64,000 nucleotides of DNA from Flaccisagitta enflata (lineage: Eukaryota), in contig OZ231126.1 of the NCBI GenBank assembly GCA_965153355.1, positions 38,316,001 through 38,380,000 on the forward strand, written 5' to 3'. Within the stretch, counting starts at the first letter, position 1; each line of letters starts with the position of its first letter. The translations under genes were made by a program, and so were the position numbers. Positions 8,975 to 35,747 of this stretch are shown here, one piece after another. The notes beneath the pieces were generated by a model, which had not been told where the DNA came from, did not search any database, and saw only the letters and a list, made by a program, of their open reading frames with translations.

Positions 8975-9975
8975 TGTCACGAAGCATGGTCTTGCACCAA
9001 TTTTGTCTATTCTTACGGATTATTTGGTTTGTATTTAGGCCTTAGATTTTGATTTATTGATTGATATTTTGGTTATATTAAGATATTTTACTTAGATTTG
9101 ACCATTTTATTTAGACTGGCTTTTATCGTTTGCATTTATTACAGGTTTGAATTATTCTGGTTTCATTTATTGACATTGCTTAGATTTATTGATTGATTTA
9201 TTGCCTCGTTTATTCGTTTATTTCAGGCATTTATTGATTTGTCTGTCTGATTTGTCCTCATTTCGGTCCAAATTGTTCATGTTTGTCCGTATGATCTTTT
9301 CTTGCTTTGCATTTTGTTTCTGTCATGAATCTCCTGCGCCTTTTGTTATTTGGGCTATTTTAGACCAAATTCGTAGCGCCCTCATTTGACCATTATTTGC
9401 ATTTTTTACTGGCTGACGCAATTCGGCTTCGAAGATTCCATGATATTTTATCGCGTTCTAGAACTTTTTGTTGCTTATATACCGCCATTTTGCCGGCAAT
9501 ATTCTCACGGACTCTAGAGAGACGCTTCGAATTACTAAAAACTACGTTTCCGTATATTAAATAGACGATTTTTACCATTATTTGCATCGATACGAGCATT
9601 ATTGGGACGCTTTTCGACTTCCCTTAGCGCCAAACAAAGGTGAGAGCTTGGTTTGGGTCCGTATTTTTTATTATTTTTCCTGTACTTAGCCTTATTTTTC
9701 CTGTTTCCGGCTTATTTTCCCCGTATTTAGCCTCATATTTTGTCATTATTCTGTCATTATTTGGTCAGTATTTTGTCACTTTTAGTAGTATTCATTATCT
9801 CCTTTATTTTCACTGTCTTGCAGCTTTAACTAACTTCGACTACCGTTCAAATAAAAGAAGATTTCGTTACGATCGCTCTGTATTTGTTTGGGGATCGAGG
9901 TTTAGTCACGAGCGGCGCAGCCGCATACAGGAGAGCTAGAGGCATTGGGCATTTAGTTTAGTACACCAGAATACA
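8975..9975 (+). repeat. 5' LTR (1001 bp)
   Basis: TG...CA ends, AATAAA at 9850-9855. Matches 34644-35644 at a constant offset of 25669, and three ORF-track translations are identical between the copies. Confidence 0.95.
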
Positions 9976-9990
9976 GTTAAAGCTTTAAAT
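9976..9990 (+). promoter_or_regulatory. Non-canonical primer-binding site region
   Basis: gttaaagctttaaat directly follows the LTR-terminal CA, with no TGG. Conserved in the inverted copies ending at 29686 and 33238, and complementary to LTR 9822-9831. Confidence 0.5.
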
Positions 9991-10797
9991 AGCGCATGCC
10001 CTGGCTCTTTTGTGTGTGTCTATCGTTGATCAGAACCCACAAAGACAAAGAACCGTCCTCAATCTTCGCTCGATCGAATCAACGCCCAAAGTAATAAAGA
10101 AACCGACGCGACGATCAAGAATCAACTCGGAATCGATGCCCCACTTGGACACGTATCTCATGAGAGAAAAAAAAATCCAAACAGAAGAAGGAAACCTCGT
10201 AAACGCCGATCGAGTCTTCTCCGAGGTAGCGCGTGAACAGATCAACTTGCGTGAATAATTAGTAAATCAAACTGACAGTCCCCGCTCACCCGGTGACCAT
10301 CGGAAACACCGCATTTTGCACACGTGAATTTGCACATCCCTAGAAAGCTAGAAACATCATTTTCAAGGGTCTTCGTTCACGAAGAAACTTGATTGTCAGT
10401 CAGTGTCATTTTCAAGCAGTTACACGTCTTCTGCTGAGGTCCCTCGTTCGCGAGTGACCTCGGCTCGCTAGAAATCCTTGCTACTAGAATCTAGAATTTC
10501 GAAGAGCCCCTCACCGGGTGATTCGGTCCTCTGTTAGATTTTTAGAAACGCTTAATTTTCGAAGAACCCCTTTCCGGGTAATTCGGTCCCGTCAGTCAGA
10601 ACATCAGGCTAATAAGGATAACAGCTGATTAGGCCTCGGTAACCGAGGACTTTCAAGCTGAGATCTTACAGGTCATTAGGGACATTTTTTCAGAGCTCGT
10701 TTGCAGCTTTGATAACAAACAAATCTCGAGAGTTGGGCCTATTTTGGCACCTAAGTTCGAGTCTCTCTGTTCATCAGAGGGTTCTAAACAGTCCCGT

Positions 10798-10881
10798 ATG
10801 TCCCGCAGGCCCAAGGGCCGCGGGATGTACTTTCACGGGGACACTACGCCCGACGATCGCGGGATGTCAGTAGGAATCTAG
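10798..10881 (+). pseudogene. Truncated third variant of the ORF1 start (MSRRPKGRGMYF...) inside the leader
   Basis: Upstream DNA gggcctattttggcacctaagttcgagtctct resembles gggcctaaattggcacgtaaattcgagtctct before the ORF1a ATG. The peptide resembles MPRSPQGSGMY. Inverted copies at ~28503-28586 and ~32190-32270. Confidence 0.55.
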
Positions 10882-11641
10882 AGAGGAAAAGAATCAGTGA
10901 AAACAGAACCCTTAAAGCATGTAGTAGCTTGCGCGGCAAAACCTTAAATTCCAACGTAAAAAAAAGAAAAGAACTCGGAAAGGAAAGAAAAGAAAGAAGA
11001 AAGAAAGAAAAGAAAGAAAAAAAAGAAAGAAAAAAAAAGAAAGAAAAAAAAGAAAGAAAGAAAGAAAAGAAAGAAAAAGAAAGAAAGAAAAGAAAGAAAG
11101 AAAGAAAAGAAAAAAAAGAAAAAAAAAAAAAAGTAAAAAAAAAAAATAGAAAACACGAAGTCTCTCTGCCAACCCGAGGACGGAGAGCGGCCGTGCCCGC
11201 ACATCTGTAGCTCGGGCCAGTTCCGCAATCCTCTTCCTACTCAGAACTTAGAAAGACGAAGAAATGAAAGAAACTATGAATCAGAATTAAATTCGCAGAA
11301 CTTGGGAGGAAATAAAGAACTTGGAAAGAAAGAACTCGAAAGTTAGAAAGAACTCGAAAGTTAGAAAAAACTCGAAAGTTAGAATCCATTTGACCTGGGA
11401 AATAGAAGTATTTGTTATCAATGAAACTCAATTCAGTTGAGTTGATTCAGTTCTGCATCCTACATCAATTCAGTCAATTATGCCTCGGCATCCGAGGAAT
11501 TTTGGCTTGAGAGCAAGTAACTGTTAGAAAACTTTCTTAGAAGCTCGTCTATAGCTCTAAAACTTCAAAAAATGTCGAGGTGGGCCTAAATTGGCACGTA
11601 AATTCGAGTCTCTTTGCTAACCCAGAGAATAGCCCATCAAT

Positions 11642-14600
11642 ATGCCTCGCTCACCACAAGGTAGCGGGATGTATCATGAGGTTAGCCCCCAGCATAGCCG
11701 CTATTATGCTAGGATCCTTGTCGATGACGCCACCAAGACTTTGAGGGAATTCCTGATAGCTCACGGCTTGGCCAGAGACTATCCGGAGCCAAAGTTTAAG
11801 CAGAGGGCAAATGATCTATTCTCTCAGGTCCAAAAAATGAAATTCGAACTGATAGAATTACCCCCATCCTTTCCACCAGATGAACAACAAAGAATAGACT
11901 CACTGATAGGAAGGATTCAGAATGAATTAGAAGGACACCCAGCCTTTTACATTCCATCAAGCGGAAATACTGCAAGTAATCCTTCGCTTCCTGCCTTCCC
12001 AATTCAAAGGGCTCCACCCGTGGTTCCTCGCGTTCACCATTCCTCCCAATCCATCTCACAGAGTCCCCCTTCCCTCATCGCATTCAGCGATAATTCCCGA
12101 GTCTCCCATCAGTTACAAAACGAGCCTATGGCCAGTTCTGACCAAGTTGAATCAGTCATTTCCGATCGGTTCTTTGACCCGCTCAGTATTCCCTCACAAG
12201 TTGCCAGTTCCTTCGATGGCCTCTCCACCATTGCAACGGTATCACGTCAAACAAACCAAGCATCACGCACGTTACGGCCATCCAAAGAACCAACGATCCC
12301 ACTTGTGCTAGAAAACAACGCCCCTCACAGAAACCATGACCAGATTATTAGAGGTCAGAAATTAAATGAACGCAATCATCAAAAACACTTGCGCTATGAT
12401 GACGCGGTCAAACAGACTAAAATCAATTCTTTGAACGCAATTGCAGCCAACCTCAGTGCTGCGGTCGATTTAATGAGGGAACTGATAATCAATAATCCTC
12501 TCGACGAAACTCCTTCGAATCAGCAAAGACAGGGCCACACAGAAAGATTGGGTGAAAGCGATCCACACACTCCTGCATCAGATTCAGATTCAGATTCTGA
12601 TACAGATTCAGATTCTGATACAGATTCAGATTCTGATACAGATTCAGATTCAGATTCTTCGGCCGAATGTGGCCCTCCTCAGCCTCAGACTTTCTGTTCC
12701 CAGATCCAGTTTCGTACTCAACCGACTCAAACTGATCACTTACTGATACAGAATCAGAACTATGTTCCTCAGTCTCAATTTCATGACAATTCCGAACAGA
12801 CTATGTCTAATCAGAACCAATCCGAGCGCACTCAAGTTAGATCTGGACCACTTCTGGACTTGGCTTGTTATCAGCCTGCTCAGTCTCATTCTCGGCCTGC
12901 TCAGTCTCATTCGCGGCCTGCTCAGTCTCATTCGCGGCCTGCTCAGTCTCATTCGCGGCCTGCTCAGTCTCATTCGCGGCCTGCTCAGACTCTCATTCAC
13001 GGCCTGCTCAGTCTCATTCGGCCTGCTCAGTCTCATTCTCGGCCGGCTCAGACTGATTGCCAATTTGCTCTAATAGACTTGGGTACCTCTTCCCCCACTT
13101 GCAGCACCGCCAGATACAGACCACAGTCCCAATCACAACAGACTCAGCATTCAGCGCAAATAATCGAAAACCAAAATACATGGCGAGCGGCAGGGCCCAG
13201 CTCGTTTGAAGCTTGGGCGAGTTCCGCAAGCCAACCACAACCACACACCACCCAACCACAACCACAACCACAGAGTAGGGAAGTGGAAAACCTTGCAAGG
13301 CTTTTCTGTGGCAATCACGATTCTACTTCTGCTCAAAACTCAGTCCGGCCTAAAACTCATGCATCTTTGCCAACGCCACCCAAGTATTATGACCCCATAC
13401 TCAGATTACCCACTCCCTCTTGGGATTCACCACAACATCAAAATGTCAATCAACATTCAAGACAGATTGACTCAGACTCACCAACCCTTTTGCGCGCGTC
13501 TGGAGTGAGTTACGCACCATCATACGCCCAACCCGCTTTGTTTCATCCTACTCCAGTTAAGGTGCAGATAAGCCATGAATTATTTGCCTCATCAAAATTT
13601 GGGATGGTTGTGTTGGCTCAGTCAAACAATCAAAGTCAGTCTGAAGACTCTTTTACCGTCATTGGCCCTGAAAACGACATCGAAGGGGCAATAGAAATTT
13701 CCTCAGAAGAAGCCGTTGAGGCCAACTCAGAAGAAGCCGTTGAGGCCAACTCAGAAGAAGCCGTTGAGGCCAACTCAGAAGAAGCCGTTGAGGCCAACTC
13801 AGAAGAAGCCGTTGAGGCCAACTCAGAAGAAGCCGTTGAGGCCAATTCAGAAGAAGCTGTTGAGGCCAACTCAGAAGAAGCCGTTGAGGCCAACTCAGAA
13901 GAAGCCGTTGAGGCCAACTCAGAAGAAGCCGTTGAGGCCAACTCAGAAGAAGCCGTTGAGGCCAACTCAGAAGAAGCCGTTGAGGCCAACTCAGAAGAAG
14001 CCGTTGAGGCCAACTCTGACGCCGAGGCTCAAGATGACGCCGAGGCTCAAGATGACGCCGAGGCTCAAGATGACGCCGAGGCTCAAGATGACGCCGAGGC
14101 TCAAGATGACGCCGAGGCTCAAGATGACGCCGAGGCTCAAGATGACGCCGAGGCTCAAGATGACGCCGAGGCTCAAGATGACGCCGAGGCTCAAGATGAC
14201 GCCGAGGCTCAAGATGACGCCGAGGCTCAAGATGACGCCGAGGCTCAAGATGACGCCGAGGCTCGAGATGACGCCGAGGCTCGAGATGACGCCGAGGCTC
14301 AAGATGACGCCGAGGCTCAAGATGACGCCGAGGCTCAAGATGACGCCGAGGCTCAAGATGACGCCGAGGCTCAAGATGACGCCGAGGCTCAAGATGACGC
14401 CGAGGCTCAAGATGACGCCGAGGCTCAAGATGACGCCATAGCTCAAGATGACGCCATAGCTCAAGATGACGCCATAGCTCAAGATGACGCCATAGCTCAA
14501 GATGACGCCACAGCTCAAGATGACGCCATAGCTCAAGATGACGCCAGCTCAAGATGACGCCATAGCTCAAGATGACGCCTAGCTCAAGATGACGCCATAG

Positions 14601-14887
14601 CTCAAGATGACGCCTAAGCTCAAGATGACGCCATAGCTCAAGGTGACGCCATAGCTCAAGGTGACGCCATAGCTCAAGATGACGCCATAGCTCAAGATGA
14701 CGCCATAGCTCAAGATGACGCCATAGCTCAAGATGACGCCATAGCTCAAGATGACGCCATAGCTCAAGATGACGCCATAGCTCAAGATGACGCCATAGCT
14801 CAAGATGACGCCATAGCTCAAGATGACGCCATAGCTCAAGATGACGCCGAGGCTCAGGACAACTATGGCATCTCAGAACTCATTTAG
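11642..14887 (+). CDS. ORF1a: putative Gag-N-terminal-like helical domain, low-complexity linker and acidic repeat tail (EEAVEANS)n(DAEAQD)n
   Basis: 971-aa ORF 11642-14557 in gag position after the LTR and leader. Small indels in the repeat at ~14546-14580 break the frame; otherwise it would end ...QDNYGISELI* at 14885-14887. No capsid or zinc-knuckle motif recognised, so Gag identity is positional inference. Confidence 0.6.
13703..14860 (+). repeat. 24-bp then 18-bp tandem arrays (tcagaagaagccgttgaggccaac; gacgccgaggctcaagat / gacgccatagctcaagat)
   Basis: Directly visible head-to-tail repeats without spacers. Confidence 0.97.
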
Positions 14888-16305
14888 TCCATTTCTACGC
14901 AAACTTCAGTCTTAGTATCAGACTCACTTGTGCATTCACATTTAGAAATGAGGACAATTTGTAAATATTGTGCATTATTTTCATTTCTCTCTTAAATTAA
15001 TGCTCTCATTTTTTGAATGATATTTGCCTGACTCTACAAGCGCGTCACATTCCCTAACAAACATGATATTTGTGTGACTCTAAAGTGGGTCACCCTTCCT
15101 TACAACAAACTAAGTCTCTCAGATGACCATGTATTGTTGTGCAACCTTATGCAATCCCAATACTAATTTCATTTTAAAGGCTTACAATGCCCGCAAGAAA
15201 AATGAAATGAATGAAGGGACTTCATCATTTAGAAATTAATCCATGGATCATTTTAGAAACGAGTCATGCTTCACCATACAACTTGGTTAACCGGAAAACC
15301 AAGCATATGGTTTTGCACGCTAATGTGAACAATTCAATTCTACTTGCATAATTCTAGATGTGGGTTATGCTTGTAGAGCTTCAGAATTTTGAACCTTGGG
15401 ATCCCAAAAAAAAACTTAAGACCTCAGAACCTCAGAACCTCAGAACCTCTCCCACTCAGCTAAGTATGGCATGAAATCCTGAAGCCGCAGAGGCGAGTTG
15501 AAAACAACGTTGGATACTGTGCCTTAATGCTTAGAAGGGAAACCTCAGAACCTCAGAACCTCTCCCACATACCTTAGTATGGTATGCAATCCTGAAGCCG
15601 CAGAGGCGAGTCGGACGCGACGCTGGACACTGAGCCTTTGAGCTCAGAAGGGAACAACAGAAACAAAACAGAACCAAAACTTTGTAAGTGAAAATAAGTG
15701 GCAGTGCACTAGCTCGTCTGTAATTCGGGCGAGTTCCGCGAGTTTTCACTCTCGAGGTATCTCCATTGTAAATATCATCATTCATTTGTCTTCACCTTTA
15801 TTGATTATGAGAATTTAACCATTTGCCATCCCCGACATAGACGTTGGAATGATAAGATGAATTAATCCGGTAATCTTAGATTCAAATGACATGTCATAAC
15901 ATGTCTAAAAGAGACAAGAAAAAACAAACGAATCAGAACATACGAAAGAACAAGAAAATACAAACGAATCAGAAAGAAAATGAAACCAAAAGGAGAATCA
16001 AAATCAGAAGAAAAGTGGTATTACTTTCAGAACAAATTGAAAAGAACAACAGATAGAAGAAGAACAGAATGATACAGAACAGATAGAAAAAGAACAGAAT
16101 GAAAAAGAACAATCAAACGCGCCAGAACAGATAGAACCCGAAGAGTCCGTTCGCCGAATGAATGGAAATAACAATTGATTCGTTCAAATTGTTCGTTCGT
16201 CAAAGAGAAGCGGATTGAATAAACGATTCCGCTGAGAAGTTAATCGTTCTTGTCGTCGATGGATCATTGTCGTATTTTTCCCGCCATCGTCTTTGTTGTT
16301 GTTGC

Positions 16306-16341
<36 letters not shown>

Positions 16342-19052
16342 GTTGTTAATGTTGTTTTTGTTGTTAGTGTTGTTTTGTCGCTGATGTTGTTTTGTTGTTG
16401 ATGTTGTTTTGTTGTTAATGTTGTTTTTGTTGTTAGTGTTGTTTTGTCGTTGATGTTGTTTTGTTGTTGATGTTGTTTTGGTTGTTGATGTTGTTTTGTT
16501 GATGTTGTTTCGTTGTTGATGTTGTTTTCGTTGTTAGTGTTGTTTCGTTGTTGTTTTGTAGCCGTCTGGTTCGCGGAGCTGCTGCAATCTACATGGCGAG
16601 CGAGACTGCCGCTCACCATCTGGTGTGATTCTCGGTGATGAAGTCGCTGACAAAAGTTATTAAATGTTCAAATTTGTTGATGCTTGAAGACTTGAAGCCA
16701 ATATTGCATAAGAGATGAGTTTCAGGCTCGCGACTTCCGTCCACACATGTCATCAGCTTTACTAGCGCCTCCTCGCCACTGTCACCAATTTCTGTCTCGC
16801 GAAAACATCAATCAGTCCAATGATTCAGAGGTGGTTGAGCAATCAACTGTCATTTATGTAGCTGTCCCAAAATACCGCTTCGTGTCGGTCAGTCCGGGTT
16901 TGGCGATAGAGTTTGAGTTCTTCTAAATCTAATGTTTCATATTCTTTTTCTCCTATTTTGATTTCTAGCAAGTCTGGTTCTTTATTGTTTTCCTCTGTTT
17001 TGTCTCATTCTGTTTCTTTCTGTTCTGACTCACTAAATTGTTTTTTTTTCGATCTGCTCTGGTTCTATCTGTTCTGGCGCGCTTGATTGTTCTTTTTCAT
17101 TCTGTTCTTTTTCTATCTGTTCTGTATCATTCTGTTCTTCTTCTATCTGTTGTTCTTTTTCTATTTGTTCTGAAAGTAATACCACTTTTCTTCTGATTTT
17201 GATTCTCCTTTTGGTTCATTTTCCCCCTGATTCGTTTGTATTATCTTGTTCTTTCGTATGTTCTGATTCGTTTGTTTTTTCTTGTCTCTTTTAGACATGT
17301 TGTGACATGTCATTTGAATCTAAGATTACCGGATTAATTCATCTTATCATTCCAACGTCTATGTCGGGGATGGTAAATGATTAAATTCTCATAATCAATA
17401 AAGGTGAAGATAAATGAATGATGATATTTACAATGGAGATACTTTGAGAGTGAAACTTGCGGAACTTGCCCAAATTACAGACGAGCTAGTGCACTGCCTC
17501 TTATTTTCACTTACAAAGTTTTGGTTCTGTTTTGTTTCTGTTGTTCCCTTCTGAGCTCAAAGGCTCAGTGTCCAGCGTCGCGTCCGACTCGCCTCTGCGG
17601 CTTCAGGATTTCATACCATCTTAAGGTATGTGGGAGAGGTTCTGAGGTTTCCCTTCTAAGCATTAAGGCACAGTATCAAACGTTGTTTTCAACTCGCCTC
17701 TGCGGCTTCAGGATTTCATGCCATACTTAGCTGAGTGGGAGAGGTTCTGAGGTTCTAAGGTTCTGAGGTTCTGAGGTTCTGAGGTCTTAAGTTTTTTGGG
17801 ATCCCAAGGTTCAAAATTCTGAAGCTCTACAAGCATAACCCACATCTAGAATTATGCAAGTAGAATTGAATTGTTCACATTAGTATGCAAAACCATATGC
17901 TTGGTTTTCCGGTTAACCAAGTTGTATGGTGAAGCATGACTCGTTTCTAAAATGATCCATGGATTAATTTCTAAATGTTGAAGTCCCTTCATTCATTTCC
18001 TTTTTCTTGTGGGCATTGTGGGCCTTTAAATGAAATTAGTAATGGGATTGCATAAGGTTGCACAACAATACATGGTCATCTGAGAGACTTAAGTTTGTTG
18101 TAAGGAAGCGTGACCCACTTGTAGAGTCACGCGAATATCATGTTGTTTGTTAGGGAATGTGACCCGCTTGTAGAGTCACGCACATATCATGTTTCAGAGA
18201 GCATTAATTTAAGAGAGAAATGAAAATAATGCACAATATTTACAAATTGTCCTCATTTCTAAATGTGGATGCACAAGTGAGTCTGACACTAAGACTGAAG
18301 TTCGCGTAGAAATGGACTAAATGAGTTCTGAGATGCCATTGTTGTCCTGAGCCTCGGCTTCATCTTGAGCTATGGCGTCATCTTGAGCTATGGCGTCATC
18401 TTGAGCTGTGGCGTCACCTTGAGCTATGGCGTCACCTTGAGCTATGGCGTCATCTTGAGCTATGGCGTCATCTTGAGCCTCGGCGTCATCTTGAGCCTCG
18501 GCGTCATCTTGAGCCTCGGCGTCATCTTGAGCCTCGGCGTCATCTTGAGCCTCGGCGTCTTCTTGAGCCTCGGCGTCTTCTTGAGCCTCGGCGTCTTCTT
18601 GAGCCTCGGCGTCTTCTTGAGCCTCGGCGTCTTCTTGAGCCTCGGCGTCTTCTTGAGCCTCGGCGTCATCTTGAGCCTCGGCGTCATCTTGAGCTCGGCG
18701 TCATCTTGAGCCTCACTTGAGCCTCGGCGCATCTTGAGCCTCGGCGTCATCTTGAGCCTCGGCGTCATCTTGAGCCTCGGCCATCTTGAGCCTGGCGTCA
18801 TCTTGAGCTCGGCGTCATCTTGAGCCTCGGCGTCATTTTGAGCCTGGCGTCATCTTGAGCCTCGGCGTCATCTTGAGCCTCGGCGTCATCTTGAGCTCGG
18901 CGTCATCTTGAGCCTCGCGTCATCTTGAGCTCGGCGTCATCTTGAGCCTCGCGTCATCTTGAGCCTCGGCGTCATCTTGAGCCTCGGCGTCATCTTGAGC
19001 CTCGGCGTCATCTTGAGCCTCGGCGTCATCTTGAGCCTCGGCTTCTGAGTTG
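14005..19052. repeat. Large inverted repeat (arms ~14005-16138 and ~17061-19052, ~920-bp loop)
   Basis: 14852 gctcaggacaactatggcatctcagaactc pairs with 18323-18352. 16110-16138 aatcaaacgcgccagaacagatagaacc pairs with 17061-17088. Confidence 0.9.
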
Positions 19053-19789
19053 GCTCTGTTTGCACCTGTTTGGGACCTGCACCCTACTGTACTCGCTGCG
19101 GCTGTGGAGCTACTCGAGTCAGATGAATGATGATCAGGTTGACTGGATCGAGTTGGGTTGTGACGGGGTGGGGGTTCAATCTGACTTTGGTCAAAAATGG
19201 GGTTAGTTCGCTTGGGGTCATTGTTAAATTGAGGATTATCATGTGGCGGTGGCGGCGCCGGTAGAAGCGGCGGCGGCGCCGGTAGAGACGGCGGCGGCGC
19301 CGGTAGAGACGGCGGCGGCGCCGGTAGAGGTGGCGGCGGCGCCAGCGGAGGCGGCGCCAATGGTGGTGATGGCGGCGCTGATGGTGGCGGCGGCGCTGAT
19401 GGTGGCGGCGGTTTTGTAGCCGCAGTTCCGTCGAGGAAAGACTGAGTGAGAGTCGGATCAATAGCAACTAACGCTGGAATGTTATAGGCTGGATGACGTT
19501 CTAATGCGCACTGAATCAATCCTATCATGGTGTATATCGTTTCTTGTTCGTCTGAGGGGAAAGTTGGGGGTAATTTTGTAAGCTCACATTTCACCTCTTC
19601 GACCAGAGAGCGTAAATCATTCGCCCCTTTCTTAAATCGTGGTTTTGAATCGTCTCTGCCCATGTTGTGAACTCTCAGGAATTCCTGCATTAAGTCGGCA
19701 GCGTCACTGACAAGATCCTCGGCGTGACGGCTGACGTGTTTGGAGTCAACGTCATGATACGTCCCTTTACCCTGTGGTAAGCCAGACAT
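18317..19789 (-). CDS. ORF1b: divergent paralog of the ORF1 N-terminal domain with polyproline linker and the same DAEAQD tail
   Basis: The first ~105 aa align without gaps to ORF1a at about half identity by manual count (PQGxGxYH, EFL, RD, FK, ANDL, LPPxFPxDEQ, HPA). ORF track 18920-19789. The tail has several 1-nt indels and ends in the same GISELI*. Confidence 0.6.
18347..19052 (-). repeat. 18-bp tandem array, inverted copy
   Basis: ggcgtcatcttgagcctc units, with many 1-nt indels at ~18690-18960. Confidence 0.95.
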
Positions 19790-20413
19790 ATTGACGGGTT
19801 ACTTTCTGGGGTGAGCAGAGATTTGGACGATAAAATCGCCCTTCCGGAAGTCCTCAGTTTCCGAGGCGTAATCGGCGAAAATCTAGCTGATGCAGGACTC
19901 ATCGGGAGTTAATGATCTCGCTATTTTAGGTCAAGGTTTTACCAGCCGAAGTTAGGGAACGGGTCCCTGTGGCAGAGATGGAACTGGCGACGTGATTCTA
20001 TTCACTGTCTTTTTCACTTTATTTTCTATCTTTTATGCTCCTCGTTTACTCTTTTTCTTTTTATCTTTTGGGATTCTTTTTAACTTTCGAGTTCTTTCTT
20101 TCCAAGTTCTCTATTTCCTTACAAATTCTGCGAATATTATCTCTGACTCATAGTTTCTTTCATTTCTTCAACTTTCTAAGTTCTGAGTAGAAACAAATCG
20201 CGGAACTGGCCCGAGCTACAGACGAGCGGGCACGGCCGCTCTCCGTCCTCGGTTTGGCAGGGTGACTTCGTGTTTTCTATTTTTCTTTTAATTTTTTTTT
20301 TCTTTTTCTAATTCTTTCTTTCCGAGTATTTCTTCTTTTCTTTTTCTTTTCTTTTTCTTTTCTTTTTCTTCCTTTTCTTTTTCTTTTTCTTTTATTCGTC
20401 CTCTCCTTGGCCT

Positions 20414-21982: not shown

Positions 21983-22602
21983 AGAACACAGTGGGATCGT
22001 CGACCCACGGGAGGACGCGTGTAATAGAATCATTTCATTTAGACTATGTTTTACAGTCAGTCGTGAGTTTCACATTTCAGTAATTAGTATTGAGTTCTGA
22101 GGTTTCCCTTCTAAGCATTAAGGCACAGTATCCAACGTTGTTTTCAACTCGCCTCTGCGGCTTCAGGATTTCATGCCATACTTAGCTGAGTGGGAGAGGT
22201 TCTGAGGTTCTAAGGTTCTGAGGTTCTGAGGTCTTAAGTTTTTTGGGATCCCAAGGTTCAAAATTCTGAAGCTCTACAAGCATAACCCACATCTAGAATT
22301 ATGCAAGTAGAATTGAATTGTTCACATTAGTATGCAAAACCATATGCTTGGTTTTCCGGTTAACCAAGTTGTATGGTGAAGCAAAACTCGTTTCTAAAAT
22401 GATCCATGGATTAATTTTTAAATAATGAAGTCACTTCATTCACTTCATTTTTCTTGCGGGCATTGTGGGCCTTTAAAATGAAATTAGCGATTTTATCTGA
22501 ATTTCTATCAAATGATGCGCAATATTTACAAATTGTCCCTATTTCTAAATGTCCATGCACAAGTGAGTCTGATACTAAGACTGAAGTTTGCGTAGAAATG
22601 GA

Positions 22603-25600: not shown

Positions 25601-27761
25601 TGGCCTCGGCATCTGAGTTGGCCTCGGCATCTGAGTTGGCCTCGGCATCTGAGTTGGCCTCGGCATCTGAGTTGGCCTCGGCATCTGAGTTGGCCTCGGC
25701 ATCTGAGTTGGCCTCGGCATCTTTTGTGGAAATATCTATTGCCCCTTTGATGTGGTTTTCATGGCCAAGGACGGTAGAAGAGTCTTCAGACTGACTTTGA
25801 TTGTTTGACTGAGCCCATACAGCCGTCCCAAATTTTGATGACGCAAATAATTCATGGCTTATCTGCACCTTAACCGGAGTAGGATGAAACAAAGCGGGCT
25901 GGGCGTATGATGGTGCGTAACTCACTCCAGATGCGCGCAAAAGGGTTGGTGAGTCCGAGTCAATCTGTCTGGAATGTTGATTGACATTTTGACGTTGTGG
26001 TGAATCCCAAGAGGGAGTGGGTAATCTGAGTATGGGGTCATAATACGTGGGAGGCTCTGGCCAAGATGCATGAGTTTTAGGCCGGACTGAGTTTTGAGCA
26101 GAAGTAGAATCGCGATTGCCACAGAAAAGCCTTGCAAGGTTTTCCACTTCCCTACTCTGTGGTTGTGGTTGGGTGGTGTGTGGTTGTGGTTGGCTTGCGG
26201 AACTCGCCCAAGCTTCAAGCGAGCTGGGCCCTGCCGCTCGCCATGAATTTTGGTTTTCGATTATTTGCGCTGAATGCTGAGTCTGTTGTGATTGGGACTG
26301 TGGTCTGTATCCGTCTGTGTCTAGCTGTGGTCTGTATCTGGCGGTGCTGCAAGTGGGGGAAGAGGTACCCAAGTCTATTAGAGCAAATTGGCAATCAGTC
26401 TGAGCCGGCCGAGAATGAGACTGAGCTGGCCGAGAATGAGACTGAGTAGGCCGAGAATGAGACTGAGCAGACTGAGAATGAGGCTGAGCAGGCTGATAAC
26501 AAGCCAAGTCCAGAAGTGGTCCAGATCGATCTTGGGTGCGCTCAGATTGGTTCTGATTAGACATAGTCTGTTCAGAATTGTCATGAAATTGAGACTGAGG
26601 AACATAGTTCTGATTCTGTATCAGTAAGTGATCAGTTTGAGTCTGTTGAGTACGAAACTGGATCTGGGAACAGAAAGTCTGAGGCTGAGGAGGGCTACAT
26701 TCGGCCGAAGAACCTGAATCTGAATCTGTATCAGAATCTGAATCTGTATCAGAATCTGAATCTGTATCAGAATCTGAATCTGTATCAGAATCTGAATCTG
26801 TATCAGAATCTGAATCTGAATCTGAAGCAGGAGTGTGTGGATGACTTTCACCCAATCTTTCTGTGTGGCCCTGTCTTTGCTGATTCAAAGGAGTTTCGTC
26901 GAGAGGATTATTGATTATCAGTTCCCTCATTAAATCGACCGCAGCACTGAGGTTGGCTGCAATTGCGTTCAAAGAATTGATTTTAGTCTGTTTGACCGCG
27001 TCATCATAGCGCAAGTGTTTTTGATGATTGCGTTCATTTAATTTCTGACCTCTAATAATCTGGTCATGGTTTCTGTGAGGGGCGTTGTTTTCTAGCACAA
27101 GTGGGATCGTTGGTTCTTTGGACGGCCGTAACGTGCGTGATGCTTGGTTTGTTTGACGTGATACCGTTGCAATGGTGGAGAGGCCATCGAAGGAACTGGC
27201 AACTTGTGAGGGAATACCGAGCGGGTCAAAGAACCAATTGGAAATGACTGATTCAACTTGGTCAGAACTGGCCATAGGCTCGTTTTGTAACTGATGGGAG
27301 ACTCGGGAATTATCGCTGAATGCGATGAGGGAAGGGGGACTCTGTGAGATGGATCGTGAGGAATGGTGAACGCGAGAAATCACGGGTGGAGCCCTTTCAA
27401 TTGGGAAGGCGGGAAGCGAGGGATTATTTGCAGTATTTCCGCTTGATGGAATGTAAAGGGCTGGGTGTCCTTCTAATTCATTCTGAATCCTTCCTATCAG
27501 TGAGTCTATTCTTTGTTGTTCATCTGGTGGAAAGGATGGGGGTAATTCTATCAGTTCGAATTTCATTTTTTGGACCTGAGAAAATAGATCATTTGCCCTC
27601 TGCTTAAACTTTGGCTCCGGATAGTCTCTGGCCAAGCCGTGAGCTATCAGGAATTCCCTCAAAGTCTTGGTGGCGTCATCGACAAGGATCCTAGCATAAT
27701 CGCGGCTATGCTGGGGGCTAACCTCATGATACATCCCGCTACCTTGTGGTGAGCGAGGCAT
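22603..27761 (-). CDS. ORF1a': inverted second copy of ORF1a with a ~3.1-kb acidic 18-bp repeat tail
   Basis: N-terminal ~680 aa nearly identical to 11642+. Three small deletions at ~25135-25200 (1+1+2 nt) shift the frame. Restored, it ends DAIAQDNNGISELI* at 22603. Confidence 0.6.
22633..25720 (-). repeat. ~3.1-kb 18-bp tandem array arranged in blocks of variant units
   Basis: Successive blocks encode DAEANS, EAEANS, EAEAHS, DVEAHS, DAEAQD and DAIAQD in the restored frame. Confidence 0.97.
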
Positions 27762-29686
27762 ATTGATGGGCTATTCTCTGGGTTAGCAAAGAGACTCGAA
27801 CTTGCTTGCCAATTTAGGCCCACCTCGTCATTTTTTGAAGTTTTAGAGCTATAGACGAGCTCTTAAGAAAGTTTTCTAACAGTTACTTGCTCCCAAGCCA
27901 AAATTCCTCGGATGCCGAGGCATAATTGACTGAATTGATGTAGGATGCAGAACTGAATCAACTCAACTGAATTGAGTTTCATTGATAACAAATACTTCTA
28001 TTTCCCAGGTCAAATGGATTCTAACTTTCGAGTTTTTTCTAAATTTCGAGTTCTTTCTAACTTTCGAGTTCTTTCTTTCCAAGTTCTTTATTTCCTTCCA
28101 AGTTCTGCGAATTTAATTCTGATTCATAGTTTCTTTCATTTCTTCGTCGTTCTGAGTAGGAACAGGATTGCGGAACTGGCCCGAGCTACAGACGTGCGGG
28201 CACGGCCGCTCTCCGTCCTCGGGTTGGCAAAGAGACTTCGTGTTTTCTATTTTTTTTCACTTTTTCTTTTTTTTTCTTTTCTAATTTTTTTTCCGAATAT
28301 TCTTTCTTTTCTTTTTCGTTCTTTTCTTTTTCGTTCTTTTCTTTTTCTTCTTCTTTATCTTTCGCGTCTTTTTTTCCTACTGTTCTCTTTCTTTCTTTCT
28401 ACCTTTCCGAGTTCTTTTCTTTTTTTACGTTGGAATTTAAGGTTTTGCCGCGCAAGCTACTACATGCTTTAAGGGTTCTGTTTTCACTGATTCTTTTCCT
28501 CTCTAGATTCCAACTGACATCCCGCGATCGTCGGGCGTAGTGTCCCCGTGAAAGTACATCCCGCGGCCCTTGGGCCTGCGGGACATACGGGACTGTTTAG
28601 AACCCTCTGATGAACAGAGAGACTCGAACTTAGGTGCCAAAATAGGCCCAACTCTCGAGATTTGTTTGTTATCAAAGCTGCAAACGAGCTCTGAAAAAAT
28701 GTCCCTAATAATTACTAACGATCTCAAGTTGATGATCCTCGGTGACCGAGGCGTAATCAACAAGAATGAACTGAGTGCAGAACCGAGTCAGTTCGATTAA
28801 ATCGAGTTCCTCGGTAAACTGCGCCTTTAAGGTTCCTGATGATTTCTGACAGATGCTCGATGTTCTCAGTCCGAAGGTCCTCGATTATTCCATTGTTCCT
28901 TTCATTAAATTCGCTGACTGACTAATGGTCCAAATTACCCGGTGAGGGGTTCTTCGTGAAGTTGACGATTCTAAAATCTAGTAATCCTGACTAACTGACA
29001 AGGCCGAATTACCCGGTGAAGGGTTCTTCGAAAAAATAGACGTTTCTAAAAATCTAGGTGATCTGACTGACTGACAGGGGGACGAATTACCCGGTGTGGG
29101 GTTCTTCGAGTTTCTAGTTTCTAGTAGAATGGATTTCTAGCTAGCCGAGGTCACTCGCGAACGAGGGACCTCAGCAGAAGACTGCTAAATGCTTGTAATT
29201 GACTAACTGACAATTCAAGTTCCTTCGGTGACCGAAGATCCTTGAATATTAATGGTACTAGCTTGCTAGATTGTGCAAATCGACGTGTGCAAATGCGGGT
29301 GCTTTCCGATGGTCACCGGGTGAGCGGGGACTGTCGGTCTGATTTTCTAATTACTCGCGTAAGTTTTTCTGTTCACGCGTTGCCTCGGAGAAGAAAGACT
29401 CGGTCGAGTATTTCTCCGTCTTCTGTTCAGATTTCTTTTTTTGTGAGATACGTGTCTTTGTTCTTGATCGCGTGAGTTTCTTGGTTACGTTGGGCATCGA
29501 TTCTGAGCTGATTCTCGATCGGTTTCTTCTTGATCAATTTGGGCGTTAATTCTGAGTGGGTTCTTGATCGTCGTCGAATACTCACCAATCGAGCGAACAT
29601 TGAGGACGGTTCTTTGTCTTCTTGGGTTCTGATCAACGATAGACACACACAAAAGAGCCAGGGCATGCGCTATTAAAAGCTTTAAC
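27762..29686 (-). repeat. Inverted 5' leader of the internal unit
   Basis: Reverse complement of 9976-11641 with an extra ~200-bp segment. Confidence 0.88.
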
Positions 29687-30741
29687 TGTATTGTCGTGTA
29701 CTAAACTAATGCCCAATGCCTCTAGCTCTCCTGTATGCGGCTGCGCCGCTCGTGACTGAACCTCAATCCCACGAATAATACAGAGCGATCTCAATGCGAT
29801 CTTCTTTTATTTGAACGTAGGCGAAGCAGTTAAAGCTGCAAGACAGTGAAAAATGAAAGGAGCTAATGAAAATGCAGCTAAATATACAGATATCTAGCCA
29901 GAAATACTCAATAATACTGAAAGTGACCAAATACTGAACGAATAATGACGGAATAATGACGGAATAATGACAAAAATACGGGAAAAATAAGCCGTAAACG
30001 GGAAAAATATGGCTAAGTACGGGAAAAATAATACGAAATATGAACCCAAATCAAGCTCTCACCTTTGTTTGGCGCTCAGGGAAGTCAAATAGGCGTCCTA
30101 ATAAGGCTCGTATCAGTGCAAAATATGGTGAAAAGCGTCTATTTAATAGGCGAAAGAGTAGTTTTTAGCAATATGAGCGTCTTTTCTAGATTCTGTAAGG
30201 AAATATCGTCGGCAAAATGGCGGTAACTAAGCAACGAAAGGTTCTAGAAAATCATAGAATTCTATGGAAATCTTCAATTTCCCTTCGAGGTTCGATTGCG
30301 TCAGCCAGTAAAAATGCCAATATCGGTCAATTGAGGGCGCTACGAAATCGGTCTAAAATAGCCCAAATGACAAAAGGCGCAATGAATTCATAACAGGAAC
30401 GAAATGCAAGGCAAGAAAATATCATACGGACAAACATGAGCAATTTGGACAGAAATAAGGACAAATCAGACGGACAAATCAATAGATGCATGAAATAAAC
30501 GAATAAATGAGTCAATAAATCAATCAATAAATCTAAACGATGTCAATAAATGCGATCAGAATAAATCAAACCTGTAATAAATGCAAACGATAAAAACCAA
30601 TCTAAATAAAACGGTCAAATCTAAGTAAAATATCTAAATATAATCAAAAATATCAATCAATAAATCCAAATCTAAGGCCTAAATACCAACCAGATAATCC
30701 GTAAGAAATGATAGAATTGGTGCAAGACCATGCTTCACGAC
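29687..30741 (-). repeat. Internal inverted, diverged LTR of the same family
   Basis: Reverse complement of the terminal LTR with many substitutions and indels. It ends in ...ATACA followed by the same gttaaagct site. The first T of the TG terminus is missing at the junction with the La cassette. Confidence 0.9.
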
Positions 30742-30758
30742 TCGTTCAAATTGTTCGT

Positions 30759-31862
30759 TCATCGAAGAGAAGCGGATTCGACCTTCATCGGTTCGGACTT
30801 CGGCTCGGCCTTGGCATCGTTACGCTTATGGAAACCGCCTCCGCCGCCTCCGCCGCCTCCACGGCCGCCGCGACCGCCTCTTCCGCCGCCGCGACCTCCT
30901 CTGCCGCCTCGGCCGGCATCGCGTCTGCTCTGATGGTCGCGTCGGAATTCCTCCCAGTATTCCGTCTCTTCCTCTCCTTCCAACAATTTGAGCTCTAGCT
31001 CTTTCTCCTCGATGGTGATTTTGCCTTCTAATTGTTTGATAACGTCGGCCGCGGAATTCTCTCCGTTGAATCGCACTTTTATGGTCGACTCCTCTTTGTT
31101 CACCGTCACCCAAGCAACTTTTTTCTCCGCGGTCTCTGAAAAGGCCGATTTGACGGCGTTGACGTCGAGGCCTTGGATGTCGGCGTTGACAATTTTAAGA
31201 ACGGCGGCTTTCTCTTTCACGCCAATTTCCTCTTTTTTCGGCGCCGATTCTTTGGATTTTCCACCGTGTCTCTTTTCTTTTAACTCGGCGTTCTTCGCCG
31301 TCAAGTAGTCTTTTTGGAATTGGATAATGAGATCTTCTGCGTCGTCTTCTTTGAATTTCTTACAGTCTGAAGACAAGATTTTGTTGCAATCGTCCACGGA
31401 CTTGTACGTGACGAAAATCGAACCCTTGAACTGAGACTTTTCCTTGATTCGTCTCATGAAAACATTCTCGGACATGCAGACTTTGTCGACGAAAGGAATG
31501 ATGTCGTCCAAAGAGGCCGTCACCGGAAAGCCCTTCATGTAAAGAGTTCTGCTCTGAACTTCGTCCTTCCAATTGCTGTCCACGACGGGAATCTTTCTTT
31601 CTGGATTGCGTCTGATTTTGCTCTTGTCTTCGTTAACCTCGAGCAAGCCGCTGGAAGATTTTGTGAGAGCGTCCGCGATCACCGCTTCCTCCTTTGATAA
31701 CTGAGCCAAACGGTTGAATTTCAGCATGACTTCCAAGGATATCCATCCCTCGTCCTTCTTGATCTCTTCCTGTAAGAACTTATCGCGACCGAGGTTGTGA
31801 TCGCCGAAATAATATTCAACTTGTCTGATAATTTTCGACTCGAGTTCTGAAATGACCGCCAT
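30759..31862 (-). CDS. La: Intronless La (SSB, lupus autoantigen) homolog captured inside the LTR element
   Basis: La motif (KIIRQVEYYFGDHNL.RDKFL...GWISLEVMLKFNRL), RRM1 (RTLYMKGFP, FKGSIFVTY), an RRM2-like region and an RGG-rich basic tail. 367 aa, uninterrupted. The last codons and stop lie in element-derived sequence. Confidence 0.93.
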   Translation of the reverse strand: MAVISELESKIIRQVEYYFGDHNLGRDKFLQEEIKKDEGWISLEVMLKFNRLAQLSKEEAVIADALTKSSSGLLEVNEDKSKIRRNPERKIPVVDSNWKDEVQSRTLYMKGFPVTASLDDIIPFVDKVCMSENVFMRRIKEKSQFKGSIFVTYKSVDDCNKILSSDCKKFKEDDAEDLIIQFQKDYLTAKNAELKEKRHGGKSKESAPKKEEIGVKEKAAVLKIVNADIQGLDVNAVKSAFSETAEKKVAWVTVNKEESTIKVRFNGENSAADVIKQLEGKITIEEKELELKLLEGEEETEYWEEFRRDHQSRRDAGRGGRGGRGGGRGGRGGRGGGGGGGGGFHKRNDAKAEPKSEPMKVESASLR

Positions 31863-31964
31863 GATTATTGGATAATGACCGGATGGACGGCGTTGTTCAA
31901 AATAAGAAAACTGATAATGGTCTCCTTTATTTTAAACAAGTGAAGTAGTAGAAATTAGCTCAGT

Positions 31965-33240
31965 TTAATTTTTTTTTTCTTTTTCTAATTCTTTCTTTCC
32001 GAGTATTTCTTTTCTTTTCTTTTTTCTTTCTTTTTCTTTTCTTTTCTTTTCTTTTCTTTCTTTCTTTCTTTCTTTCTTTTCTTTTTCTTTTTTCTTTTTC
32101 TTTCTTTCTTTTCGTTGGAATTAAAGGTTTTGCCGCGCGAGCTACTACATGCTTAAAGGGTTCTGTTTTCACTGATTTTTTTCCTCTCTAGATTCAAACT
32201 GACATCGTGCGATCGTCGGGCGTAGTGTCCCCGTGAAAGTACATCCCGCGGCCCTTGAGCCTGCGGGACATACGGGACTGTTTAGAACCCTCTGATGAAC
32301 AGAGAGACTCGAACTTAGGTGCCAAAATAGGCCCAACTCTCGAGATTTGTTCTGAGATTAAAGCTACAAACGAGCTTTAAAATGCCTTAAATGACGTGTG
32401 ATCTCAGCTTGAAAGTCCTCGGTTACCAAGGCCTAATCAGCTGTTGTCCTTGACTTGATGTCCTGACTGACTGACAGGGCCGAATTACCCGGTGAAGGGT
32501 TCTTCGAAAAAATAGACGTTTCTAAAAATCTAGGTGATCTGACTGACTGACAGGGCCGAATTACCCGGTGAAGGGTTCTTCGAAAAAATAGACGTTTTTA
32601 AAAATCTAGGTGATCTGACTGACTGACAGGGGGATGAATTACCCGGTGTGGGGTTCTTCGAGTTTCTAGTTTCTAGTAGAATGGATTTCTAGCTAGCCGA
32701 GGTCACTCGCGAACGAGGGACCTCAGCAGAAGACTGCTAAATGCTTGTAATTGACTAACTGACAATTCAAGTTCCTTCGGTGACCGAAGATCCTTGAATA
32801 TTAATGGTACTAGCTTGCTAGATTGTGCAAATAGACGTGTGCAAATGCGGGTGCTTTCCGATGGTCACCGGGTGAGCGGGGACTGTCGGTCTGATTTTCT
32901 AATTACTCGCGTAAGTTTTTCTGTTCACGCGTTGCCTCGGAGAAGAAAGACTCGGTCGAGTATTTCTCCGTCTTCTGTTCAGATTTCTTTTTTTGTGAGA
33001 TACGTGTCTTTGTTCTTGATCGCGTGAGTTTCTTGGTTACGTTGGGCATCGATTCTGAGCTGATTCTCGATCGGTTTCTTCTTGATCAATTTGGGCGTTA
33101 ATTCTGAGTGGGTTCTTGATCGTCGTTGAATACTCACCAATCGAGCGAACATTGAGGACGGTTCTTTGTCTTCTTGGGTTCTGATCAACGATAGACACAC
33201 ACAAAAGAGCCAGGGCATGCGCTATTAAAAGCTTTAACTG
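31965..33240 (-). repeat. Inverted copy of the element 5' leader placed upstream of La
   Basis: Near-identical to 28430-29688 (offset 3552 over its distal part). Starts with the LTR-terminal CA and gttaaagct. Confidence 0.88.
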
Positions 33241-33259
33241 ACGCTTTCTTGTTCTTTTT

Positions 33260-34629
33260 CTGAACAAATCGAAAAAGAACAGATAGAAGAACAGAATGAT
33301 ACAGAACAAATAGAAGAACAGAATGATACAGAACAAATAGAAAAAGAACAGAATTAAAAAGAACAATCAAACGCGCCAGAACAGATAGACACAGAACAGA
33401 TCAAAAAAGAACAATTTAGCGAGTCAGAACAGAAAGTAACAGAACAAGACAAAACAGAAGAAAACAATGAAGAACCAGACTTGCTAGAAATCAAAATAGG
33501 AGAAGAAGAATATGAAACATTACATTTAGAAGAAGAGTTAGGGATTGACAGGGACCTTCCTCTCAACCCGTACAGAACAAATCGTCACAGTACCCGAGGA
33601 AGGAGAACATTATGGCATGTGGAACGACGAAGTCTACCACACACTCTGTCGGCAAACCTGGATTGACTGACACGAAGCGGCATTTTGGGACAGCTACATA
33701 AATGACAGTTGATTGCTCAACCACCTCTGAATCATTGCACTGATTAATGTTTTCGCGAGACAGAAATTGGTGACAGTGGCGAGGAGGGTGATTTGGCGCT
33801 AGTAAAGCTGATGACATGGGTGGACGGAAGTCGCGAGCCTGAAACTCATCTCTTATGCAATATTGGCTTCAAGTCTTCAAGCATCAACAAATTTGAACAT
33901 TTAGTAACTTTTGTCAGTGACATCACCAAGAATTATGCCAATGGTGAGCGGCAGTCTCATCTCGCTTTGAAGTTGGAGGAGTCCTGCGAACCAGATGGTA
34001 ACAACACTAACTACGAGACAACATTAACAACAAAGGACAACAACAATCTAACAACAACCATGGCGGGAAATCTACAACAATAATTCATCGACGACAAAGA
34101 ACAATTTACTTCTCAGCGGAATCGACTTATCAATCCGCTTTCCTTTGACGAACGAACAATTACAGCGAATCAATTCATATTTCCATTCATTCGGCGAACG
34201 GACTCTCCAGCGGATTAAATCAATCCGCGTTTCATCGATCGAAGCGCTTACTGCTAACTAACTCTGTCAAGACTACTTTTAACTAATGATCTAGCGCTTT
34301 TGGTCATCTCTCATCGACGATTTGAAGCTTTTGGTTCCGGCAAGATTCGAAAGATACAGATTCTCCCACCCCCCCACCCGCGCATACCAGTAACTAACTT
34401 AACACCTGAAACAACTAATAAACTCTATGTAGCTTGCGCACATTTGAATTGAATTATTAATGCGACGCAGAGCACAAGCGCTTTAAGAAGACGACGAAAG
34501 AATTTATTCTCAAGATTTCACTACACTGTGATATACTCCAATTGTTACTCAGGAAATTGGACAAGACCAGGCTTCTAGACTAGTTTAGTTTTTTCCCCAA
34601 ATTGGTATATTTCATATATGATTTGACTC
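33260..34629 (+). repeat. Non-coding 3' internal region of the element
   Basis: 33260-34207 is the reverse complement of ~16142-17172. 33260-33388 repeats 16027-16136 directly. Confidence 0.85.
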
Positions 34630-34643
34630 AAAAACGGGGGGAG
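34630..34643 (+). promoter_or_regulatory. Polypurine tract (plus-strand primer)
   Basis: Purine-rich run (A5-C-G6-AG) immediately 5' of the TG of the 3' LTR. Confidence 0.85.
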
Positions 34644-35644
34644 TGTCACGAAGCATGGTCTTGCACCAATTTTGTCTATTCTTACGGATTATTTGGTTTG
34701 TATTTAGGCCTTAGATTTTGATTTATTGATTGATATTTTGGTTATATTAAGATATTTTACTTAGATTTGACCATTTTATTTAGACTGGCTTTTATCGTTT
34801 GCATTTATTACAGGTTTGAATTATTCTGGTTTCATTTATTGACATTGCTTAGATTTATTGATTGATTTATTGCCTCGTTTATTCGTTTATTTCAGGCATT
34901 TATTGATTTGTCTGTCTGATTTGTCCTCATTTCGGTCCAAATTGTTCATGTTTGTCCGTATGATCTTTTCTTGCTTTGCATTTTGTTTCTGTCATGAATC
35001 TCCTGCGCCTTTTGTTATTTGGGCTATTTTAGACCAAATTCGTAGCGCCCTCATTTGACCATTATTTGCATTTTTTACTGGCTGACGCAATTCGGCTTCG
35101 AAGATTCCATGATATTTTATCGCGTTCTAGAACTTTTTGTTGCTTATATACCGCCATTTTGCCGGCAATATTCTCACGGACTCTAGAGAGACGCTTCGAA
35201 TTACTAAAAACTACGTTTCCGTATATTAAATAGACGATTTTTACCATTATTTGCATCGATACGAGCATTATTGGGACGCTTTTCGACTTCCCTTAGCGCC
35301 AAACAAAGGTGAGAGCTTGGTTTGGGTCCGTATTTTTTATTATTTTTCCTGTACTTAGCCTTATTTTTCCTGTTTCCGGCTTATTTTCCCCGTATTTAGC
35401 CTCATATTTTGTCATTATTCTGTCATTATTTGGTCAGTATTTTGTCACTTTTAGTAGTATTCATTATCTCCTTTATTTTCACTGTCTTGCAGCTTTAACT
35501 AACTTCGACTACCGTTCAAATAAAAGAAGATTTCGTTACGATCGCTCTGTATTTGTTTGGGGATCGAGGTTTAGTCACGAGCGGCGCAGCCGCATACAGG
35601 AGAGCTAGAGGCATTGGGCATTTAGTTTAGTACACCAGAATACA
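34644..35644 (+). repeat. 3' LTR (1001 bp)
   Basis: Copy of 8975-9975, preceded by the PPT and followed by TSD GATGA. Confidence 0.95.
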
Positions 35645-35676
35645 GATGACCTATACTTTCACACATATGGGGTATT

Positions 35677-35708
<32 letters not shown>

Positions 35709-35715
35709 CTCCTCC

Positions 35716-35747
<32 letters not shown>

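Follow-up and report, generated by a model that had tools for sequence, protein, structure and literature searches.

Within a 64-kb window of the Flaccisagitta enflata genome (64,000 nucleotides of contig OZ231126.1, positions 38,316,001 to 38,380,000), positions 8975 to 35644 form a 26.7-kb composite bounded by long terminal repeats (LTRs), with an interior of 24.7 kb. There is, in our judgment, about an even chance that this segment arose by one integration of a chimeric, non-autonomous LTR-retrotransposon cDNA whose interior had been built earlier by template switching. This reading is favored because the outer LTRs are identical, a target site duplication (TSD) and a polypurine tract (PPT) are present, the interior is diverged and non-collinear, the reading frames are intact, and some junctions fall at the ends of replication intermediates. 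The outer boundaries are as follows.

8970 to 8974, no strand: left TSD, GATGA, the same as at 35645 to 35649.
8975 to 9975, plus strand: outer 5' LTR, 1001 bp, TGT...ACA, with TATATA at 9476 and AATAAA at 9850.
34644 to 35644, plus strand: outer 3' LTR, 1001 of 1001 positions identical to the 5' LTR.
35645 to 35649, no strand: right TSD, GATGA, the same as at 8970 to 8974.

Self-BLAST of the window recovers a direct repeat (8975 to 9976 and 34644 to 35645) with 100% identity over 1002 bp, and a base-by-base comparison of the outer LTRs, 8975 to 9975 against 34644 to 35644, gives no mismatches in 1001 positions; the rule of three applied to these 0/1001 differences places their divergence below ∼0.3%. 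Both LTRs start with TGTCACGAAG and end with CCAGAATACA. The 5-bp GATGA sits flush against both of them, a match expected at random about once in 1000 cases, and a purine tract, AAAAACGGGGGGAG, at 34630 to 34643 abuts the right LTR and is the PPT of the structural definition of LTR retrotransposons. An earlier note on this DNA had described the identical 1001-bp LTRs, the GATGA duplication, and the PPT, and all are borne out. Direct LTRs with TG...CA ends, a TSD within the 4- to 6-bp range, and a PPT are thus all present, as the structural definition has it. The note had also spoken of a reconstructable empty site, and this is not confirmed: its basis is the TSD alone, and the window contains no uninterrupted paralogue of the joined flanks, which would be a paralogous empty site. 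Insertion of the whole composite as a single cDNA is the most economical reading, in keeping with the proposal of an LTR-bounded insertion mobilized as a unit.

The interior is not that of a simple retrotransposon. A first repeat search was swamped by 18-bp arrays, and the map is therefore drawn from self-BLAST, both plain and with the arrays masked, together with direct alignments.

8975 to 16141, plus strand: copy A, consisting of LTR, leader, ORF1a, arrays, and 3' region.
9976 to 11641, plus strand: leader of copy A, with a conserved first 35 nt (the presumed primer-binding region) and an A-rich tract at 10979 to 11153.
11642 to 14557, plus strand: open reading frame (ORF) ORF1a, 971 codons from an ATG, with arrays at 13702 to 14859.
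14860 to 16141, plus strand: 3' region of copy A, broken off at 16141, 96.1% identical to 18344 to 17058 of copy B.
16142 to 20404, minus strand: copy B, with 3' region (18344 to 16142), array (19042 to 18345), ORF1b (19789 to 18920), and a partial leader.
20405 to 21982, plus strand: 3' third of a BEL/Pao-type pol, with Integrase_H2C2 and DUF5641 (Pfam).
21983 to 22093: 111 bp of unique sequence directly after the pol fragment.
22094 to 30741, minus strand: copy C, with a truncated 3' region (22630 to 22094), array (22631 to 25722), ORF1a' (27761 to 23070), leader, and inner LTR.
29686 to 27762, minus strand: leader of copy C, from self-BLAST with arrays masked.
29687 to 30741, minus strand: LTR of copy C (the inner LTR), which shares 85.8% identity with the outer pair.
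30742 to 30778, minus strand: 37 nt of family 3'-region sequence that separate La from the inner LTR, matching 16216 to 16180 of copy B at 35 of 37 positions and 34132 to 34161 of D at 26 of 30.
30759 to 31965, minus strand: partial La copy, with La motif, RRM, and RRM_3 (Pfam).
31966 to 33240, minus strand: fragment E, leader only, 96.5% identical to the leader of copy C.
33241 to 34643, plus strand: 3' region D, with the PPT at 34630 to 34643, 89.1% identical to copy B.

There are seven internal junctions (16141/16142, ∼20395 to 20404, 22093/22094, 30741/30742, ∼30778, ∼31965, and 33240/33241) and four orientation switches. Self-BLAST with masked arrays reproduces the segment order given in the earlier note, and the junctions that it placed at 16138/16139, ∼20400, ∼22093, 30741/30742, ∼31965, and 33240/33241 agree with ours to within 3 bp. 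Two pieces are new to the present map: a fragment of the family 3' region (22094 to 22630) that follows the integrase and precedes the third array, and the 37-nt family piece (30742 to 30778) that separates the inner LTR from La. At none of the seven internal junctions is there a clean integrase join accompanied by its own TSD. Two of the seven fall, to within 2 nt, at positions where reverse-transcription intermediates naturally end. Fragment E, which includes the last 2 nt of an LTR (33239 to 33240) ahead of the primer-binding region, starts at the boundary between U5 and that region, which corresponds to the 3' end of finished minus-strand cDNA; the inner LTR, its first base missing or changed at the junction, starts at the first U3 base or one base inside, corresponding to the 5' end of plus-strand DNA.

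The remaining joins are of other types. The leader of copy B reaches back only to the A-rich tract (∼20395 to 20404), and fragment E extends to the A-rich tract, where it is joined to La; the B-pol and E-La junctions are independent, and both fall in this same tract of the leader. The joins of A to B and of pol to C are abrupt, with no more than 3 shared nt. Positions 16142 to 17171 of copy B corresponds to the reverse of D at 33288 to 34206, with 89% identity. We also note that the A-rich (AAAG/AAAAG) leader tract is a repeated breakpoint, seen at 10979 to 11153, 20273 to 20404, 31966 to 32060, and 28240 to 28400, and that the tract of E is closer to that of B than to that of C, even though E and C share 96.5% identity in the 5' leader.

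The end of A (16020 to 16141) and the start of D (33258 to 33383) correspond to one ∼110-bp stretch of the family, over which they differ, matching in 90 of 110 aligned columns; judged by eye and uncounted, A is almost B-like within this overlap and D is more different. A simple element split by one later insertion is rejected, because these two ends overlap in family coordinates and yet differ.

An arrangement this disordered could in principle reflect an assembly artefact, in which the contig was threaded through dispersed copies of the family and the LTR identity came from collapse or polishing. The region consists entirely of repeats of one family, kilobase-scale arrays of 18-bp units are hard to assemble, and consensus polishing can yield perfect identity over 1001 bp. 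We nevertheless give this explanation only a small probability, as misjoins at repeats fall within shared homology and stay collinear, whereas the junctions here are abrupt, lie at non-homologous coordinates, and include four strand switches; moreover, the TSD matches across 26.7 kb, the window contains no N, and the inverted arms are 92 to 94% identical rather than perfect palindromes. A palindromic sequencing or read artefact is rejected on this last ground, the arms being merely 92 to 94% identical in self-BLAST.

The internal copies are considerably more diverged than the outer LTRs. Outer and inner LTRs share 85.8% identity. In the 5' leader, A is 83.1% identical to C or E, while C and E are 96.5% identical; ORF1 outside the arrays is 97.1% identical at the nucleotide level between A and C, and the ORF1 N terminus of A and B only 69.8%. 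The 3' region gives 96.1% for A and B, 97.5% for B and C, and 89.1% for B and D. These values uphold the earlier proposal that the inner copies are diverged and the outer LTRs are not (85.8% for the LTR, 96 to 97.5% for ORF1 and the 3' region, and 70% for the ORF1b N terminus), and the interior pieces are mosaics drawn from several lineages of one family. Set against the 0/1001 differences of the outer LTRs, internal differences of 2.5 to 4% in ORF1 and the 3' region and of 14% in the LTR indicate that the LTR pair is at least 10 times younger than the internal duplications, as is expected if the outer LTRs were last copied from one template. Between ORF1a and ORF1a', synonymous divergence (dS) is 0.053 and nonsynonymous divergence (dN) is 0.024, a ratio of 0.45 over 656 codons. 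The large frames (ORF1a, ORF1a', ORF1b, the 519-residue integrase, and the 367-residue La) are all open, which argues that the sources of the pieces were active until recently, as those of an old and decayed nest would not have been.

A long-accumulated cluster of nested rearrangements, its outer LTRs recently homogenized by intra-element gene conversion, is very improbable. Such a cluster would account for a diverged interior without any giant RNA, and LTR-LTR conversion is known in other genomes. However, conversion would need to have covered the full 1001 bp to the very ends; the intact long frames of the interior and the perfect TSD and termini make an old age unlikely; and nested insertions of unrelated elements are not seen inside.

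Patching after integration is a more serious competitor, although we regard it as unlikely. An ordinary family element of ∼9 to 10 kb would have inserted very recently, and a later break in its 3' region would have been repaired from ectopic copies by microhomology-mediated break-induced replication, ectopic conversion, or end-joining capture of extrachromosomal cDNA, turning the middle into a 17-kb inverted patchwork. Junction microhomologies of 0 to 3 nt, and once of 8 nt, together with four orientation switches are typical of replicative template switching and end joining, no hairpin-forming RNA of 25 kb is required, and end joining of unintegrated cDNA fragments would likewise put junctions at natural cDNA ends. 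It would, however, require at least five donor copies and seven illegitimate joins before any change arose in 2 × 1001 bp of LTR; the overlap of A and D is not an identical duplication, and documented events of this type draw mostly on neighboring sequence, whereas the window has no family copies outside the element.

The La segment comprises ∼100 nt of 5' untranslated region and, without interruption, codons 1 to 362 of a 423-codon La, with the end of the frame (SLR and a stop) contributed by the family piece. Compared with P0004, a La of 423 residues predicted from a contig of transcript size (1.8 kb), 358 of 365 residues are identical, with homology ending at residue 362; named La relatives (from molluscs, nematodes, and others) reach ∼41% identity at most. 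The last 61 residues of P0004 are absent from the entire window, and the possibility that a real La locus had been broken by insertions was dropped for this reason. At the 3' junction, the last 8 nt of the 37-nt family piece, AATCCGCT in the sense orientation, fit both the La codons E-S-A and the family sequence, and the 5' junction lies where the A-rich tract of leader E ends, with no more than 3 shared nt. There is no poly(A), and the copy is flanked by family leader at its 5' end and by a family 3' piece at its 3' end; relative to the outer LTR promoter it runs antisense, and no LTR precedes it in its own orientation.

An incomplete, 3'-truncated mRNA copy that lacks poly(A), is embedded in retrotransposon sequence, and seems to be joined to it at short shared sequences points to a passenger retrocopy and not a host gene. 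What had been called a host La gene is instead a 3'-truncated, uninterrupted partial copy (codons 1 to 362 of 423) fused to the family at both ends. It appears to bear the published signature of LTR-mediated retroposition, a model set out with the BEL/Pao examples BATUMI and BEL18_AG in PMC5131818; that source also cites Bs1 of maize and treats chimeras with retroposed host mRNA as able to retropose again as pseudo-elements. As in the cases described by Tan et al. 2016 (PMC5131818), a partial, 3'-truncated mRNA replaces internal sequence, without poly(A) and with joins that may lie at short shared sequences. Unlike the cases set out there, the La chimera is merely one inverted fragment of a larger composite, its 5' LTR is lost exactly at the primer-binding boundary, and the family piece 3' of La is just 37 nt and runs straight into the next LTR. 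The La junctions fit LTR-mediated retroposition, and we count this in favor of a chimeric cDNA.

The integrase segment carries an HHCC zinc finger, a DDE core, and DUF5641, with the zinc-binding and DDE columns kept in alignment, in a frame open over 519 residues with no ATG at its start. It aligns from residues ∼880 to 940 through the C terminus (up to 1463) of Pols of 1417 to 1468 residues; Peptidase_A17 and RVT_1 are found in both Pols scanned against Pfam (P0128 and P0129). The highest identity to any database protein is 64% over 63% of the query (P0279), near-full-length matches reach 55 to 58% at best, and named relatives (insects, a spider, and a bivalve) have 28 to 34%. All seven full-length BEL/Pao Pols compared match the window only at 20405 to 21976, through their last ∼520 residues, and a Pfam scan of 71 of the 117 ORFs of at least 100 residues in the window finds no protease, reverse transcriptase (RT), or RNase H. 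The absence of RT proposed earlier therefore stands, both in that the seven Pols match solely through the integrase part and in that the 71 scanned ORFs have none. The description of this segment as a lone integrase holds as far as the integrase domains are concerned, but more precisely it is the final third of a BEL/Pao Pol, intact and lacking a start codon at its beginning.

The pol fragment itself is, by its domains and relatives, of BEL/Pao origin. Of the full BEL/Pao set (Peptidase_A17, RT, RNase H, and integrase with DUF5641), the integrase third alone is present, and each of its two joins to family sequence is illegitimate. Nothing ties the LTR/ORF1 family to BEL/Pao beyond the neighboring pol fragment and the 5-bp TSD.

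The family is otherwise characterized by its ORF1, its leader, and its arrays. In ORF1a, a helical domain at the N terminus is followed by a long stretch of low complexity and then by an acidic tail of 24-bp and 18-bp repeats. ORF1 matches no Pfam family, including the BEL/Pao gag families, and has no usable ESM Atlas match; a search of 5.8 billion proteins yields one relative, P0124, of 965 residues and 47% identity, which also has an acidic tail. An N-terminal domain of ∼105 residues is common to ORF1a, ORF1a', ORF1b, and P0124, and is encoded in the first three at 11642 to 11960, 27761 to 27440, and 19789 to 19475, respectively. AlphaFold2 prediction for residues 1 to 353 gives helices at 16 to 97 and 232 to 284, with a mean predicted local distance difference test score (pLDDT) of 51, and with modest confidence the N terminus may be modeled as a three-helix bundle followed by one long helix. 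ORF1 as a recognizable Gag is not upheld, given no Pfam family, no usable ESM Atlas match, and a pLDDT of 51.

In the leader, 34 of the first 35 nt are conserved in A, C, and E (9976 to 10010, 29652 to 29686, and 33204 to 33238), whereas the LTRs are just 86% alike. The number of 18-bp acidic-repeat units varies, with ∼170 in C (22631 to 25722), ∼47 in A (14017 to 14856), and ∼40 in B (18348 to 19042); the 3.1-kb array of copy C consists of three sub-arrays with different unit variants, and its assembled length may be unreliable.

Under a single integration of chimeric cDNA, we infer an RNA of ∼25 kb that would have started in R of an A-type 5' LTR and ended in R of a D-type 3' LTR. Enzymes acting in trans would have reverse transcribed it and integrated the product, a step that would generate the two identical LTRs and the 5-bp duplication. 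The interior would have been made earlier from at least five diverged relatives (A, B, C, E, and D) of one ORF1-bearing LTR family, plus the pol third and a partial La mRNA. These earlier joins would be illegitimate, most of them plausibly arising by RT template switches or jumps at template ends. La could have been captured by the known route of a double template switch, in which synthesis would exit the family 3' region at the 8-nt match in La codon ∼362, continue until the La mRNA ended at its 5' terminus, and then rejoin the family leader at the A-rich tract.

Several considerations weigh against this scenario. Mobilization as a unit rests on a single locus. The transcript would hold inverted repeats of 2.0 kb (92%) and 2.4 kb (94%) and complementary arrays, as well as an antisense LTR and 16 AATAAA motifs, and the inverted repeats would form long double-stranded RNA folds that invite silencing and deletion during reverse transcription. 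By the sizes given in PMC3118150 for BEL/Pao elements (4.2 to 10 kb), the 24.7-kb interior is 2.5 times the usual, and by those given in PMC6431247 it is at the limit for any LTR element (the interior of Burro is at most 25 kb) and well beyond passive cargo of the type carried by large retrotransposon derivatives (LARDs), which rarely exceeds 10 kb. Four orientation switches go beyond ordinary RNA-to-RNA template switching and need DNA-strand switches or DNA-level events. The leader does not open with TGG, which usually pairs with the 3' end of a tRNA, and there is no tRNA gene in the window. Finally, the 8-nt microhomology at the La junction is derived from protein and not from the parent La nucleotides.

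Comparison with known systems supplies precedents for the individual features. Complexes in plants that combine an internal LTR with one TSD and near-identical outer LTRs have been read as products of a single reverse transcription and integration (PMC1950507). Like the complexes of Angela, Squiq, and Opie described by Sabot and Schulman 2007 (PMC1950507), the composite has more than one internal domain, an internal LTR, one 5-bp TSD, and near-identical outer LTRs; specifically, it contains the inner LTR at 29687 to 30741, three ORF1-bearing cores, the TSD, and identical outer LTRs. Those complexes, as described there, are collinear head-to-tail dimers of 11.6 to 17.4 kb of autonomous plant Copia or Gypsy elements. 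In contrast, collinearity is lacking here: the inner LTR lies in inverted orientation, as do cores B and C, there are four strand switches, the pieces are truncated at non-homologous points, there is no RT, and the inner LTR is 14% diverged.

The composite also resembles LARDs and other non-autonomous LTR elements in that it retains LTRs, a leader, and a PPT while lacking its own pol, and presumably used enzymes in trans. Its non-canonical interior is LARD-like as well, in the form of an ORF1 with acidic repeats, conserved at a dN/dS of 0.45 between two copies. Unlike LARDs as outlined in PMC6431247, with cargo rarely above 10 kb, it has a 24.7-kb interior with a coding integrase fragment and inverted self-copies. 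Comparable sizes are cited in the same review only for the giant autonomous elements Ogre of legumes (16 to 25 kb) and Burro of planarians (interior up to 25 kb), which shows that LTR machinery can handle RNAs this long. As portrayed there, however, Burro and Ogre are collinear, autonomous, Gypsy-like, and present in many copies, whereas the element here is non-autonomous, scrambled, and known from one locus. Each ingredient thus has precedent, and it is the size and the four orientation switches that are unusual; the element is most likely a large, disordered instance of known processes and not a new category.

The flanking DNA is itself rich in repeats. A short interspersed family of ∼70 to 250 bp, 75 to 89% identical, is present on both sides of the insertion (233 to 453, 754 to 829, 8326 to 8413, 36023 to 36118, 38166 to 38439, and 60024 to 60154), indicating that the element landed in repeat-rich DNA. 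Four self-reverse-complementary stretches (36609 to 37191, 41630 to 42293, 53267 to 54014, and 6064 to 6393, with identities of 84%, 86%, 75%, and 78%, respectively) resemble foldback or hairpin-type repeats, and a CTC/CTT trinucleotide run at 35690 to 35770 lies ∼40 bp beyond the right TSD. Informative Pfam families were not found among the flanking ORFs, and tRNA and Rfam scans of the window gave no matches. Two long frames, 61426 to 62652 (408 residues) and 63309 to 63998 (230 residues, running past the window end), have weak, sub-threshold Pfam matches and may be exons of a host gene.

It is improbable, in our estimation, that the composite is, in the strong form of the retro-vehicle idea of the earlier note, a propagating 26.7-kb non-autonomous unit with a fixed interior, whose transcription from the LTR would necessarily yield kilobase double-stranded RNA against its own family (ORF1, arrays, leader, and LTR) and RNA antisense to the host La mRNA, and in which the intact integrase gene is kept. 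Were this so, no larger BEL/Pao-associated element would be known, and the locus would be a mobile hairpin able to silence its relatives or modulate La. La has been described as a host factor for Ty3 transposition in yeast.

For annotation of this genome, the La frame is to be treated as a truncated passenger copy and not as the host gene, and the integrase frame as a pol remnant. If the single integration is correct, animal LTR machinery can copy and integrate ∼25 kb of scrambled, hairpin-rich RNA that does not code for that machinery, well above the 4.2 to 10 kb usual for BEL/Pao and above the ∼10 kb for passive cargo. The rare junctions at the ends of replication intermediates would then be a natural record of the template jumps that build chimeras and capture host genes.

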